Shown: positions 1,129-39,132 of the stretch, piece by piece
How positions within the stretch are numbered: the stretch's first letter is position 1
How the letters are laid out: each line of letters starts with the position of its first letter
Origin: a bacterium
GTDB lineage: Bacteria > Actinomycetota > Coriobacteriia > Coriobacteriales > Atopobiaceae
Reading direction: 5' to 3'
DNA: 44,494 nt
Assembly (NCBI GenBank): GCA_963591565.1
Contig: CAVAUD010000002.1
Location: 1-44,494, forward strand
Notes under the pieces: model-generated
What the model saw: only the letters and a program-made list of their open reading frames with translations
Databases searched by the model: none
Told to the model about the DNA's origin: nothing
Program-made: the position numbers and the translations under genes

Positions 1129-1938
1129 CTACTTCCCCGCGAGCTCGGCCGCGCGGGCCAGCGCCGCGTCGACGGCGGCAAAGGAGCCCTCGAACAAGGC
1201 GGGCTCCAGCTCGTAGAGGCCGGCCGCCGTGGTGCCGCCGGGAGAGGTGACCTTCTCGGCATAGGCGCGCGGGTGCTCGCCGGACTGCAAGAGCTGCGTC
1301 GCGCTTCCGGCCATGGTGGCGAGAAGAAGCTCGCGGGCCGCGGCGCTGGGCATGCCGGCCTTGACGGCCGCGCGGGTCAGCGTGTCGACGAAGACGGCGA
1401 AGTACGCGGGCGCGGTGCCTACGACGGCGCCCTCGACCTCGAGCTGGTCCTCGCGCATGACCGAGGCCTTGCCCAGGGCGCCAAAGAGCTCGGCGGCAAG
1501 GGCCACGTCGTCGGCGCCCGCGGTCGAGCCGCCGGCGACGGCGGAGGCGCCGGAGAGCACCTCGACGCAGAGGTTAGGCATGACGCGCACCACGCGGGCG
1601 CCCGGCAGGGCCTCCTCGATGGTCGCGGTGGGCACGCCGGCCGCGATCGAGATGACGCACTTCTCGGCCAGCTGACGGGCGTGGGCCTTCATGACCGCAG
1701 GCAAGACCTGGGGCTTAACGGCGAGAATAACGACGTCGGGGGCCTGTTCCAGCATCTGCGCGTTGTCGGCGAAGGTGGCGAAGCCGGCCGCGGCAAGGGC
1801 GTCCATGCGCGCGTTGGCGTGGCCGGACACGAGGATGCGGCCCGGCTCCATGGCGCCCGCGGCCACAAGGCCCTGCGCGATGGCGCCGCCCATGGAACCG
1901 GCGCCGATGACGCCGAGCTTGATGGAGTCCAAAGACAT
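1129..1938 (-). CDS. proC: Pyrroline-5-carboxylate reductase
   Basis: IGAGSMG Rossmann motif, LAVKPQ, ISIAAGV, RVMPN, VTSPGGTT. Confidence 0.95.
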   Translation of the reverse strand: MSLDSIKLGVIGAGSMGGAIAQGLVAAGAMEPGRILVSGHANARMDALAAAGFATFADNAQMLEQAPDVVILAVKPQVLPAVMKAHARQLAEKCVISIAAGVPTATIEEALPGARVVRVMPNLCVEVLSGASAVAGGSTAGADDVALAAELFGALGKASVMREDQLEVEGAVVGTAPAYFAVFVDTLTRAAVKAGMPSAAARELLLATMAGSATQLLQSGEHPRAYAEKVTSPGGTTAAGLYELEPALFEGSFAAVDAALARAAELAGK

Positions 1939-1976
1939 GCGAAAAGTCCTAACTGCCTAGGCTGCCTGAGGGCGCG

Positions 1977-36054: not shown

Positions 36055-36468
36055 TCAGTCGTTTCTGGCGTCGAGCCAGGATTGCAAAAACAGCGACGCG
36101 GCCACCATATCGACCTTGCCGCGCATGGACTTCTCAGAAAGGCCCTGCTCGCGAAGAATCCGCTTGGCCTCGGCAGACGAGAGACGCTCGTCAACGAACT
36201 CCAGGTCAAGGCCACAGGCAGCAGCGATCTTCTCGGCCTGGTCCATGATTCGCTGGGCCTGGGGGCCGTCCTCGCCGGCCATCGTCTTGGGACGACCGCA
36301 GACCAGGATCTCGGGCTCCCAGTCGTCCAGCACGCGGCGGAAGGTCGAGGCGTGGGCCAGGACCTCGGCCGCGGGCAGGACGCACACGGGCGAGGCCACG
36401 CGCCCGGCCGGGTCGCTCACCGCGATCCCGACGCGGACCTCGCCGATGTCTAAGGCAAGCGCGCGCAC
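36055..36468 (-). CDS. ruvX: YqgF/RuvX pre-16S rRNA nuclease
   Basis: ALDIGEVRVGIAVSD, VDERLSS, VDMVAA; alaS-ruvX-mltG synteny. Confidence 0.95.
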   Translation of the reverse strand: MRALALDIGEVRVGIAVSDPAGRVASPVCVLPAAEVLAHASTFRRVLDDWEPEILVCGRPKTMAGEDGPQAQRIMDQAEKIAAACGLDLEFVDERLSSAEAKRILREQGLSEKSMRGKVDMVAASLFLQSWLDARND

Positions 36469-39132
36469 CTAGAGCCCAAGCTCCTTCTTGGCGGCCTCGA
36501 GCGCGGCGTCGATGCCCGAGACATCCGAGCCGCCGGCCTGGGCCATGTTGGGACGACCGCCGCCGCGGCCGCCGACGAAGCCGGCGATGGCCTTGACGAC
36601 GTTGCCGGCCGAGAAGCCCGCGGCCACGGCGTCGTCGGTGGCGCCGGCGAGAAGGGCGACCTTGCCGTCGGGGGTGGCGGAGGCGATCACGCAGGCCACG
36701 GCCTCGCCCTTGGCGGCGTCGCGGATGCCGTCCCAGGCGGCGCGCATGTCCTTGCCGGCCAGGCCGTCGAGACGGGCGACGACCAGCTTGTAGCCGTTCA
36801 TCTCAACCGCGGACTCGAAGGCAGCGGCGACCTTGCCGGAGCCGGCGCCGGTCGTGGCGGCCTCGAGCTTCTTCTTGGTGTCGCGCAGGTCCTGCGAAAG
36901 CGAGGCGATGCGCTCGGCGGCGTCGGCCGGGCGGCACTTGAGCTCGCGGGCGATGCCGTTCAGGGTCTCGAGCTGCTCGTCGAGGTACTCGATGGCGCCC
37001 ATGGAGCTCACGGCCTCGATGCGGCGGGCGTTGGAGCCCACGGAGCTCTCGGAGATGATCTTGAAGAGGCCCAGGTCGGCGGTGTTGCGGGCGTGGGTGC
37101 CGCCGCACAGCTCGCGGGAGAAGGGCTTGTCGGACTCACCGGTAGAGACGACGCGCACGGTCTCGCCGTACTTCTCGCCAAAGAGGGCGACGGCGCCGGA
37201 GGCCTTGGCCTCATCGATGCCCATGACGCGGGTGACGATCGGCTCGGCGGCGAAGATCTGGGCGTTGACCAGGCCCTCGACGCGCGCGAGCTCGTCGGCG
37301 GTCATGGCCTCGAAGTGGGTGAAGTCGAAGCGCAGGCGGTCGGGGCCCACGAAGGAGCCGGCCTGGTTGACGTGCTCGCCCAGGACCTGCTTCAAAGCGG
37401 CGTCCAGCAGGTGGGTGGCGGTGTGGTTGCGGCGGATAAGCTCGCGGCGGCCGTGGTCGACGGCGGCGCAGACCTCGTCGCCCACGTGGAGCTCGCCCTC
37501 CTCGACGACGGCGGTGTGGACGTACAGGCCGTTCTTGCCCTTGGTGTCGCTCACGCGCAGGCGGGCGCCGGCGGCGGTCGTCAGGTAGCCGGTGTCGCCG
37601 CACTGGCCGCCCATCTCGGCGTAGAACGGGGTCTTGTCGAGAATGACGCTCACCTCGTCGCCGGCAGCGGCGACCTCGGCCTCGGCGTCGCCCGCGACCA
37701 GGGCGCAGACCTTGCAGCCGCAGGCCTCGTCGGCGTCGTAGCCCACGAACTCGGTGGCGGCCAGCTTATCGGAAAGGCCGGTCCAGACGTCGTTGAAGGT
37801 GCCCCAGGCGTCGCGGTTGGCGGCGGCGCGGGCGCGCTCCTTCTGCTCGGTCATGCAGGCGTCGAAGCCCTCCATGTCCACGTCGTGGCCGGCGGCCTCG
37901 CAGATCTCGCGGGTGAGGTCGATGGGGAAACCGTAGGTGTCGTGCAGCTTGAAGGCGACCTCGCCGGGAAGGACGGCGCCCTCGGCAAGCTTGGCGCACT
38001 CGGCCTCGAGCATGGCCTCGCCGGCGTCGAGGGTCGTGCCAAAGCGCTCCTCCTCGGCGCGAACAATGCCCAGGATAAGGGCGTTCTGCTCGCGCAGGGC
38101 CGGGTAGTTGTCGCCCATGAGGCGCGTGACCTCGTCGACGTAGTTGGAAAGGAACGGGCTCTCGATGCTCATGAGGCGGGCGTGGTAGACCGCGCGGCGA
38201 AGCAGGCGGCGCAGGATGTAGCCGCGGCCCTCGTTGCCGGGCAGGATGCCGTCGCCGATCATGAAGGTGACGGCGCGGGAGTGGTCGGCCAGGATGCGCA
38301 GGCTGCGGTCCTTGGCGGCATCGGTGCCGTAGGTGTGGCCCGAGAGCTTCTCGCCCACGCCGATGAGCGACTGGAGAAGGTCGCCGTCGTAGTTGGTGCC
38401 CTTGTGCTGCATGATGGCGGCGATGCGCTCGAGGCCCATGCCGGTATCGATGTTGCGGTGGGGCAGCTCGGGCATCGAGCCGTCCTCCTGGCGGTCGTAC
38501 TGGGTGAAGACGAGGTTCCAGAACTCAAGGTAGCGGTCGCAGTCGCAGCCGGGCGCGCAGTCGGGGTTGCCGCAGCCGTACTCCTCGCCCTGGTCGAAGT
38601 AGATCTCGGAGCAGGGGCCGCAGGGGCCGGTGGGGCCGGCGGCCCAGAAGTTGTCCTCCTCGCCCAGGCGCGAGATGTGGTCATAGGCCACGCCCTGGGC
38701 GTGCCACAGCTCGATGGCCTCGTCGTCGTTCTCGAAGACGGTCATGTACAGGCGGTCCTTGGGCAGGCCCAGGTGCTCCTCGCCGGTGATGAACTCATAG
38801 GCCCAGGCGATGGCGTCGGCCTTGGTGTAGCCGCCAAAGGAGAAGTTGCCCAGCATCTCGAAGAAGGACAGGTGACGGGCGTCGCCGATGTTGTCGATGT
38901 CGTTGGTGCGCAGGCACTTCTGGCACGAGCACGCGCCGATCTCCTTCATCGTCTTGGAGCCCTGGTAGTACTCCTTGAACTGGTTCATGCCGGCGTTGGC
39001 GAGAAGCAGCGAGGGGTCGTCGGGCACCAGCGAGGAGGACGGGCACAGCTTGCAGCCCTTGGCCTCGAAGAACTTGAGGAAGTCCTCGCGGATCTGTGCG
39101 GTGGTCATCGTTTTGTAGTCAGCAGCGCTCAT
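36469..39132 (-). CDS. alaS: Alanine--tRNA ligase
   Basis: NAGMNQFK, RHLSFFEMLGNFSFG, IDTGMGLER, editing HTATH and CGGTH, C-Ala GGRGGGRP. Confidence 0.99.
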   Translation of the reverse strand: MSAADYKTMTTAQIREDFLKFFEAKGCKLCPSSSLVPDDPSLLLANAGMNQFKEYYQGSKTMKEIGACSCQKCLRTNDIDNIGDARHLSFFEMLGNFSFGGYTKADAIAWAYEFITGEEHLGLPKDRLYMTVFENDDEAIELWHAQGVAYDHISRLGEEDNFWAAGPTGPCGPCSEIYFDQGEEYGCGNPDCAPGCDCDRYLEFWNLVFTQYDRQEDGSMPELPHRNIDTGMGLERIAAIMQHKGTNYDGDLLQSLIGVGEKLSGHTYGTDAAKDRSLRILADHSRAVTFMIGDGILPGNEGRGYILRRLLRRAVYHARLMSIESPFLSNYVDEVTRLMGDNYPALREQNALILGIVRAEEERFGTTLDAGEAMLEAECAKLAEGAVLPGEVAFKLHDTYGFPIDLTREICEAAGHDVDMEGFDACMTEQKERARAAANRDAWGTFNDVWTGLSDKLAATEFVGYDADEACGCKVCALVAGDAEAEVAAAGDEVSVILDKTPFYAEMGGQCGDTGYLTTAAGARLRVSDTKGKNGLYVHTAVVEEGELHVGDEVCAAVDHGRRELIRRNHTATHLLDAALKQVLGEHVNQAGSFVGPDRLRFDFTHFEAMTADELARVEGLVNAQIFAAEPIVTRVMGIDEAKASGAVALFGEKYGETVRVVSTGESDKPFSRELCGGTHARNTADLGLFKIISESSVGSNARRIEAVSSMGAIEYLDEQLETLNGIARELKCRPADAAERIASLSQDLRDTKKKLEAATTGAGSGKVAAAFESAVEMNGYKLVVARLDGLAGKDMRAAWDGIRDAAKGEAVACVIASATPDGKVALLAGATDDAVAAGFSAGNVVKAIAGFVGGRGGGRPNMAQAGGSDVSGIDAALEAAKKELGL

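Follow-up and report, generated by a model that had tools for sequence, protein, structure and literature searches.

In a 44,494-nt stretch of DNA from an Olsenella-like member of the Atopobiaceae (order Coriobacteriales), hereafter the window, the tripeptide Leu-Leu-Ala (LLA) is nearly always spelled CTT CTC GCC, which raises the question of whether the protein or the DNA dictates this choice. The initial annotation, which had drawn attention to the spelling, attributed it to a DNA motif, CTTCTCGCC or its complement GGCGAGAAG, that drives synonymous sites. Our own gene calls bear out the observation, as 15 of the 17 LLA tripeptides in the window are spelled in this way, all at the positions listed earlier. 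The accompanying tally of about 16 tripeptides with one exception was right as to divIVA (position 460, CTC CTG GCC), but a second exception in mraY (position 14278, CTT CTG GCC) had been overlooked. Here, we describe the spelling as one reading frame of a hyper-abundant 12-mer, GGCGAGAAGNNC, and weigh what could maintain it, including the tentative reading that it serves as a tag of self-DNA.

The source genome (G000; coded genomes are written as G plus a number) is a 2.08-Mb draft with 65% GC in 182 contigs, of which contig C2 is the window. Gene calling with a codon-usage model gave 1648 genes that cover 86% of the genome, and relatives were gathered via FtsZ.

A hyper-abundant word kept at the DNA level

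The window contains the exact 9-mer GGCGAGAAG 38 times (plus strand 27, minus strand 11), whereas 100 dinucleotide-preserving shuffles yielded 1.13 copies on average and never more than 4. Counted with its complement, it is the top 9-mer of the whole genome with 1330 copies (687 vs 643 on the two strands). CGAGAAG, the core proposed in the initial annotation, ranks second among the 7-mers despite its three A's at 65% GC, but the conserved distal C and the rules for the flanking codons show that the true unit is instead the 12-mer GGCGAGAAGNNC, an asymmetric word with 10 specified bases over 12 and two free positions. This 12-mer occurs 1148 times, versus 17 times for its reversed control, so that 1148 of the 1330 copies of the 9-mer carry a C as the third base after it (+11). 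Among 310 intergenic copies, +11 is C in 91%, and a C or T directly precedes the 9-mer in 81%. The same preferences are seen through the codons: G is the first base in 86% of the codons that precede a motif-spelled LLA (33% for other LLA, 42% for all codons), and the codon following GGC GAG AAG ends in C in 90% (56% generally). Single-mismatch variants are enriched 2–7x at positions 1, 2, 8, and 9, and not at positions 3–7 (CGAGA).

Enrichment is found in every reading frame. Relative to 20 within-gene synonymous shuffles, the LLA frame holds 492 copies vs 28.7 expected and the frame encoding Gly-Glu-Lys (GEK, spelled GGC GAG AAG) 365 vs 284, while the four remaining frame and orientation classes, which force rare codons such as AGA, CGA, and GAA, hold 23, 34, 47, and 56 copies vs 0.2, 0.5, 1.4, and 15.8 expected. 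When the reading frame was re-scored locally with the copy masked, 19, 27, 37, and 53 of these off-frame copies were upheld. Outside called genes the word is denser still, at 1.10 per kb (315 copies in 287 kb) vs 0.57 per kb within genes. GGCGAGAAGNNC is thus a hyper-abundant word kept at the DNA level, in every reading frame, on both strands, and in intergenic DNA, contrary to codon usage. That the DNA motif rather than the protein drives synonymous sites therefore stands, but the drive is not limited to such sites, since non-synonymous ones are affected too, as seen in the GEK excess and in the amino acid changes given below.

Codon usage offers the most immediate alternative, namely a translational preference for the pair CTT-CTC, for example through re-use of the single tRNA-Leu(GAG), which decodes both codons. 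CTT makes up 15% of the Leu codons, whereas other T-ending codons of four-fold families reach 3–9%, and CTT-CTC accounts for 28% of all Leu-Leu pairs vs 5% expected. Genome-wide, 492 of 852 LLA (58%) have the motif spelling, which is below the level of the window, and independent codon usage predicts 3.2% (0.15 × 0.35 × 0.61). Both ways in which the motif claim might have failed were checked. CTT is not generally frequent before C-starting codons, as it makes up 55% of the Leu codons before CTC and just 6–21% of those before the others, nor is CTT-CTC a plain dicodon preference, because it depends on the Ala codon that follows: 492 of 706 LLA ending in GCC (70%) carry it, vs 4 of 101 (4%) ending in GCG. 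A shared tRNA gives no account of this dependence on flanking bases, which extends to the first base of the preceding codon, and the effect is not restricted to two codons of one frame, as it spans six frames, intergenic DNA, and flanking codons. It is also missing from congeners of equal GC content at third codon positions (GC3), G011 and G017. Codon-pair bias is accordingly refuted as the main cause, and we give it a vanishingly small probability. Avoidance of a restriction or methylation site does not fit either, being a poor match to a word that is gained rather than avoided.

A dicodon effect separate from the word does exist in the genus. CTC-CTC, whose genus-wide avoidance, word-poor species included, is a point in favor of codon-pair effects, is strongly avoided in G000, G009, G011, and G017, and makes up 7.7% of the Leu-Leu pairs in G011 although CTC represents 56% of its Leu codons.

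Copies in the window and turnover between sister species

The genes of the window, whose names were confirmed with NCBIfam, all lie on the minus strand and comprise a division and cell-wall cluster from divIVA to mraZ, followed by xerD, pyrG, an amidohydrolase gene, recN, nadK, tlyA, nusB, efp, an aroB-like gene, mltG, ruvX, alaS, and others. The copies are distributed over them as follows.

914–922 (+): antisense copy, out of frame (frame 2), in gene 856–1119 (−); +11 is G
1318–1326 (+): LLA copy (CTT CTC GCC) in proC; +11 not C
3378–3386 (+): LLA copy in yggS; +11 C; same site in G013 and G006
3813–3821 (+): LLA copy in pgeF; +11 C
3867–3875 (−): GEK copy (GGC GAG AAG) in pgeF; three sister species read GGC GCC AAG (GAK), more distant relatives AAK or AQK
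5752–5760 (+): intergenic copy between ftsZ and ftsQ; +11 C
6608–6616 (+): LLA copy in ftsQ; +11 C
9910–9918 (+): LLA copy in murG; +11 C; LLD in three sister species
10846–10854 (+): antisense copy, out of frame (frame 1), in ftsW; +11 C; common to three sister species
11522–11530 (+): LLA copy in ftsW; GACCAAAAG (LLV) in the sisters, three bases different
13589–13597 (−): GEK copy in murD; +11 C
14446–14454 (+): LLA copy in mraY; +11 C
15180–15188 (+): LLA copy in murF; +11 not C
15333–15341 (+): LLA copy in murF; +11 C
15966–15974 (−): GEK copy in murF; +11 C
17445–17453 (+): LLA copy in ftsI/PBP; Tyr-Ile-Lys or Tyr-Leu-Ser in relatives outside the G000 subclade
20441–20449 (+): intergenic copy upstream of mraZ; +11 C
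21585–21593 (+): antisense copy, out of frame (frame 2), in xerD; +11 not C
22218–22237 (no single strand): inverted pair GGCGAGAAG-AC-CTTCTCGCC, 4 bases past the pyrG stop; each supplies the other's +11 C
24627–24635 (+): LLA copy in the amidohydrolase/Xaa-Pro dipeptidase-like gene; +11 C
25260–25268 (−): GEK copy in the same amidohydrolase/Xaa-Pro dipeptidase-like gene; +11 C
26305–26313 (+): antisense copy, out of frame (frame 1), in recN; +11 not C
28655–28663 (−): GEK copy in tlyA; +11 C
28952–28960 (+): antisense copy, out of frame (frame 2), in gene 28798–29133 (−); +11 C
32074–32111 (no single strand): pair CTTCTCGCC/20 nt/GGCGAGAAG forming a long hairpin directly downstream of the aroB-like gene, then TTCTTTG on the strand of the gene
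32688–32696 (+): LLA copy in the aroB-like gene; +11 C
33009–33017 (−): GEK copy in the aroB-like gene; +11 C
33168–33176 (+): LLA copy in the aroB-like gene; +11 C
35875–35883 (+): antisense copy, out of frame (frame 1), in mltG; +11 C
36646–36654 (+): LLA copy in alaS; +11 C
37171–37179 (−): GEK copy in alaS; +11 C
38347–38355 (−): GEK copy in alaS; +11 C
38998–39006 (+): LLA copy in alaS; +11 not C
39258–39291 (+): two direct intergenic copies with 16 nt between them, upstream of alaS; both +11 C
42750–42758 (−): sense copy, out of frame (frame 1), in a RarA-like ATPase gene, using rare codons; +11 C

The word has altered amino acids and not silent sites alone. GEK is the most over-represented tripeptide of the proteome (412 vs 129 expected, 3.2x), with ratios of 0.7x for KEG and GKE, 2.9x for AEK, 1.41x for LLA, and 1.09x for ALL. 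Relatives often carry different amino acids at the 13 in-frame sites examined, all within the window's first 20 kb. The GEK copy in pgeF at 3867 is, judging by the alignment, an amino-acid-changing gain.

Three sister species (G013, G006, and G004), with 85–89% nucleotide identity to the window, allow a view of turnover. Sites of G000 are present at 8 of 16 alignable positions in G013 and 6 of 16 in G006, at 88% identity, and at 4 of 10 in G004; conversely, 8 of 11 sites of G013, 6 of 12 of G006, and 4 of 8 of G004 are present in G000. Simple parsimony suggests that the G000 branch gained about 5–6 sites and lost about 2 over 20 kb, counts that are provisional as the tree is not established, and turnover of the word looks active with gains ongoing. 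Sites private to G000 (e.g., 3867, 9910, 11522, and 15180) differ by 2–4 bases per 9-mer, where average divergence implies about one.

Gains through several base changes within one 9-mer would also be expected if biased mutation or repair, such as mismatch correction of the very-short-patch (VSP) type or sequence-specific conversion, made and protected the word without any function that depends on a reader. Such a process makes competence unnecessary, and it agrees with the strictness of positions 3–7 next to the 2–7x enrichment of variants at positions 1, 2, 8, and 9. Known VSP-type effects are, however, modest and act on methylation sites of 4–6 bp, whereas the word is enriched 17- to more than 50-fold over 12 bp, including the spaced C at +11, and we regard biased repair as quite improbable.

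At window sites 1318, 9910, 11522, and 14446, the sister species often have G-N-CCAAAAG (CTT TTG Gnn) in place of the word. The related GNCCAAAAG has 273–306 copies per genome in G013, G006, and G004 vs 66–99 for its control, in the G000 subclade only, and CAAAAG in G000 has no defined flanks.

Strand, arrangement and spread of the word

The strand counts of the window (27 vs 11) bring to mind polar chromosome signals, either Chi (the AddAB/RecBCD recombination hotspot) or the FtsK-orienting polar sequences (KOPS) and SpoIIIE recognition sequences (SRS) that guide FtsK/SpoIIIE, the more so as GAGAAGG, the inner part of the word, presumably resembles the recognition sequence of Bacillus SpoIIIE. 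The bias in the window arises, however, because all its genes are minus-oriented and LLA is commoner than GEK. GC skew was unusable as a proxy for replication in G000, where it is anticorrelated with gene orientation (rho −0.76, contigs over 8 kb), since the sense strand is C-rich and skew therefore tracks the coding strand. Two complete relatives were sampled instead in 20-kb stretches: G009, a single 2.085-Mb contig of the same genus with 901 copies (40 stretches, 800 of 2085 kb; origin at about 1.9 Mb and terminus at about 0.82 Mb, placed by gene orientation), and G075 of a second genus (g27), a single 1.6-Mb contig with clear GC skew and 52% GC in the sample (20 stretches). Neither shows polarity: by our sums over the sampled stretches, the leading and lagging strands carry 146 vs 168 copies of GGCGAGAAG in G009 and 61 vs 52 in G075. 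A complete record of Lancefieldella parvula (G041) has 170 copies on the plus and 198 on the minus strand, with the first 100 plus-strand copies spread across the first 913 kb of 1.6 Mb. Within G000, the strand bias follows gene orientation and not the majority strand of a contig: genes on the minority strand give 16 of 21 LLA the motif spelling, and those on the majority strand 195 of 293. In addition, RecC was not found, the best AddA-like match was far under the family cut-off, and known Chi sites are enriched far less than the word. Polar signals, to which we assign a very slim probability, are essentially excluded as an explanation, as is codon-pair bias.

Gaps between copies are Poisson-like (coefficient of variation (CV) 0.99), with no even spacing found and a modest surplus of very short gaps. 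Neighbors within 60 nt form 30 convergent (GGCGAGAAG...CTTCTCGCC), 12 divergent, and 49 direct pairs, and about 10 of the convergent pairs are, by our reading of the pair list, GGCGAGAAG-NN-CTTCTCGCC, in which each copy provides the +11 C of its partner. Some convergent pairs are long stems followed by T-runs (on contigs C51, C67, and C48); the commonest form, with a 2-nt spacer, lacks the T-run. A consensus terminator scan of the window was not informative (14 sites vs 11.9 expected from shuffles); its strongest terminator-like site, upstream of mraZ, is a 15-bp G+C-rich hairpin followed by ATTTTGTGGG (20554–20590, minus strand).

The most codon-adapted genes have a density of 0.35 vs about 0.7 per kb. 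No copy at all is found on contig C85 (1–9445; 9.4 kb, 59% GC), a candidate that looks like an acquired defence island, with genes for an N6/N4 DNA methyltransferase, a DUF4391 protein, and an SNF2/ResIII helicase of 1077 aa; this methyltransferase, which came up without a dedicated survey for such enzymes, is the single one met in the genome. Three low-GC (0.52–0.61) stretches of G009 hold 0–4 copies each. A long word-free stretch on contig C10 was dropped as a candidate for foreign DNA because it houses housekeeping genes (yidC, jag, and ddl). A strong DNA-level force thus favors the asymmetric 12-mer throughout native DNA, whichever its orientation, and in highly expressed genes selection works against this force.

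Apart from single copies, arrays with a unit of about 41 nt (…CGCCCGTGCGGCGATTTTGT-GGCGAGAAG-AC…, reading TTTTGT-GGCGAGAAG-AC) hold about 22 copies of the word in G000 (C13:27650–28025, C147:1–260 and 3380–3640, C51:14640–14831, C12:28540–28800, and C90:7250–7480). Some are arranged as large inverted repeats, and they are often located at contig ends, adjoining the start of a multi-copy gene (MTIVFSHTTALEIL…).

The 12-mer was surveyed in 201 genomes of the order, each at least 90% complete, with densities tallied by ourselves from rounded genome sizes. At least about 130 copies per Mb are found in about 31 of the 49 genomes of the family of the window (f1; coded genera g1, g25, g27, g29, g31, g32, and g35) and in only 2 of the 152 genomes outside it (G032 and G218); a Collinsella-like genus (g19) has about 20 copies per Mb in 42 genomes. 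Within the genus, among the first 40 relatives, the 9-mer ranges from 221 to 1270 copies, vs about 35–73 for the reversed control. The close subclade as defined by TadA identity (G000, G002, G003, G004, G006, and G013) is word-rich throughout, with 975–1330 copies. By contrast, the congeners G011 and G017 (66–67% GC, GC3 0.89–0.91) have 0.12–0.13 copies per kb, 2 motif-spelled LLA out of 64 in G011 and 4 out of 38 in G017, and GEK ratios of 1.5 and 1.05; since they match in GC3, base composition and general codon bias are not the source of the word. G009 takes a middle position, with 0.39 copies per kb, the motif spelling in 58 of 265 LLA, and a GEK ratio of 2.4x. The word is likewise the top 9-mer in loci of Lancefieldella parvula (49% GC; 11 copies in 21 kb) and in G075, where +11 is C in 86%, −1 is T in 56%, and 28 of 125 LLA have the motif spelling vs about 2% expected. 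One word with the same flanks is therefore kept in genomes that span 46–72% GC.

Several other words were considered as lineage dialects and rejected. ATGTCGCGCAAA has 11 copies genome-wide, 8 of them in a single local cluster; CATCGGCAA, with 85–135 copies per Collinsella genome vs 58–78 in the non-Collinsella genomes searched alongside, is an ordinary word; GNCCAAAAG is just 3–4x above its control in the G000 subclade; and no hyper-abundant word was found in either G011 or G017. In G011, the commonest LLA spelling is CTT CTT GCC (14 of 64), GGCAAGAAG occurs at 0.23 per kb, and the top 12-mer is GCCCTTCTTGCC (13 copies in 220 kb); they might reflect a weak version of the word with one base changed, although the signal is too slight for a call. 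Two Atopobiaceae loci have local repeat clusters of their own: L059 (16.8 kb) with CTCGACAAACTCGA-type units present 11–14 times, and L061 (G044 C6:42291–44470) with a AAAATGTCGCGCAAA unit, of which 8 of 11 genome-wide copies lie in one 2.2-kb cluster in alternating orientation.

Possible readers of the word and comparison with known systems

To our knowledge, preferential uptake of tagged DNA followed by recombination is the only experimentally known process that yields such a pattern. It underlies the DNA uptake sequences (DUS) of the Neisseriaceae and the uptake signal sequences (USS) of the Pasteurellaceae. By analogy with these, GGCGAGAAGNNC is possibly a self-DNA tag, a reading that we rank first and put forward tentatively. 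A sequence-specific DNA-binding protein would read the 12-mer as a predicted part of an uptake route that consists of a Tad/Flp pilus, ComEA, and ComEC; word-bearing fragments would be preferentially taken up and recombined; and this preference would spread the word across the chromosome as a molecular drive, restrained by selection on highly expressed genes and on transcripts. In its full form, which we hold to be somewhat more doubtful, the Atopobiaceae (Olsenella-like, Lancefieldella-like, and allied genera) would possess the first Gram-positive DNA uptake sequence system, in which a receptor in the Tad/Flp and ComEA/ComEC machinery reads GGCGAGAAGNNC and biases transformation to kin DNA, with thousands of codons and hundreds of amino acids rewritten as a result.

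The genes for such a route are present in G000: comEA-comEC-holA, dprA, a Tad/Flp cluster (genes for CpaB-like, TadZ-like, TadA, TadB, and TadC proteins, a Flp-like pilin, and a TadE-like pseudopilin (C18, about 15268–15873), with a 695-aa protein of no assigned family encoded next to the cluster), and a ComG-like operon (C93:1669–5723) that encodes a two-domain T2SSF protein, proteins of 108, 194 (DUF4860), 153, and 174 aa, and a T2SSE ATPase. Their presence discriminates weakly, since uptake genes were also detected in 10–13 of 14 named control genomes. In the actinobacterium Micrococcus luteus, transformation that depends on a Flp pilus is known, as stated in the accessible part of that report (PMC4322843).

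A number of observations weigh against an uptake tag. None of the three proteins tested matches the word in its distribution. TadA and the ComEA-type HHH_3 domain, considered as discriminators, are each present in 41 of 41 genomes, word-rich and word-poor alike (the 'stops inside' tadA matches of G009 and G018, which might suggest pseudogenes, are probably alignment ends crossing the terminal stop codon). The ComG-like operon was rejected as the determinant, being found in 0 of 16 genomes of g27, 2 of 8 of g25 (both word-rich), and 34 of 48 of the word-poor family f3; as the sole candidate receptor tested, it leaves none found that follows the word. Transformability and sequence-biased uptake in these bacteria are hypothetical. 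Lineage dialects were not found among the candidate top 9- to 12-mers of other Coriobacteriales loci. In G000, only 24% of the copies fall between genes, T-runs are missing from many intergenic pairs, and the word forms direct tandem arrays with a 14-nt period, which are atypical of uptake sequences. About half of the DUS and USS copies lie inside terminators according to the available portion of a recent preprint (10.1101/2025.10.24.684340). Finally, in intergenic regions between tandem genes, CTTCTCGCC prevails over GGCGAGAAG on the transcribed sense strand by about 2:1 (G000, 112 vs 55; G009, 46 vs 28; G075, 11 vs 4), a bias without explanation under the uptake model; one may infer avoidance of the purine-rich, Shine-Dalgarno-like GGCGAGAAGG in transcripts.

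Much of the evidence would fit equally well if the word were a tag read inside the cell, with a methyltransferase, a nucleoid protein, or a factor of repair or recombination as conceivable readers, and were maintained by that function rather than by uptake. Hyper-abundance in coding and non-coding DNA, family-wide conservation, and absence from the putative defence island do not distinguish the two; the lack of a co-varying competence gene among those tested and an intergenic orientation bias that suggests some interplay with transcription both speak for an internal reader. The highly iterated palindrome 1 of cyanobacteria (HIP1, GCGATCGC) is the precedent. The parts of the HIP1 literature open to us describe a 15- to 300-fold over-representation with a function that was long unknown (PMC5861425) and, more recently, links to transformation efficiency and horizontal gene transfer (10.1101/2024.09.10.611283, PMC13756078). 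The word differs from HIP1, however, in its asymmetry and in its Poisson-like rather than quasi-periodic spacing, and with 10 of its 12 positions specified it exceeds the usual length of methyltransferase sites. It is moreover patchy within one genus (221 to 1330 copies), with G011 and G017 word-poor at equal GC3, which argues against an essential cellular role, and no candidate reader was identified. On balance, we consider an internal reader, the main rival to the uptake reading, rather unlikely.

If the uptake reading of GGCGAGAAGNNC is true, the word would be the first such self-DNA tag in Gram-positive bacteria, and since Olsenella uli and Lancefieldella parvula are culturable, direct tests could show whether specific uptake arose repeatedly in evolution, which component recognizes a word of this kind in the absence of an outer membrane and ComP, and how far a DNA-level drive overrides codon and amino acid choice. 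Whatever the mechanism, the word skews statistics of codon usage, of non-synonymous to synonymous substitution rates (dN/dS), and of k-mer binning for the Atopobiaceae, and provides a simple marker of native vs recently acquired DNA. Adding it to constructs may aid the genetics of these poorly tractable bacteria. We found no publication on the word or on uptake sequences in Atopobium, Olsenella, Lancefieldella, or the Coriobacteriia, nor on the word in Actinobacteria, in a search that left most subscription journals uncovered, so that absence is unproven; literature matches to the word itself were primers only. A family-wide hyper-abundant 12-mer with a genomic signature matching that of DNA uptake sequences is thus undescribed in the literature searched. 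A 2025 preprint on 177 genomes names DUS and USS in the Neisseriaceae and Pasteurellaceae only, as far as its accessible text goes (10.1101/2025.10.24.684340); outside these two proteobacterial families, sequence-specific DNA uptake is not known to be documented.

Compared with known systems, the word shares with Chi and KOPS/SRS that all are over-represented oligomers of the core genome, but those signals are polar with respect to replication, with readers that move one way, whereas the word is non-polar. With HIP1 it has in common the hyper-abundance of a short word in coding and non-coding DNA and upkeep at the DNA level across a large clade; HIP1, in contrast, is an 8-bp palindrome with known methyltransferases that has been described as quasi-periodic, while the word is an asymmetric, Poisson-like 12-mer that is not known to have a methyltransferase. 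The resemblance to DUS (10–12 nt) and USS (a 9-nt core plus flanks) extends to a non-palindromic word of 9–12 nt at about 0.3–0.65 per kb, near-equal strands without replication polarity, presence in all reading frames, more often in those whose tripeptides are common, and a reshaped proteome, inverted pairs behind genes, scarcity in the most codon-adapted genes and absence from the candidate defence-island contig, and conservation across a bacterial family. Uptake sequences are known, from the portions available of two studies, to show orientation bias within reading frames (PMC2346458) and to co-evolve with proteomes (PMC2817400). The word departs from DUS and USS in its host, a Gram-positive member of the Actinomycetota that has no outer membrane and in which no ComP-type receptor was identified (one candidate tested), in the lack of dialects found, in having fewer copies in terminators, in its tandem 14-nt arrays, and in its patchiness within one genus.

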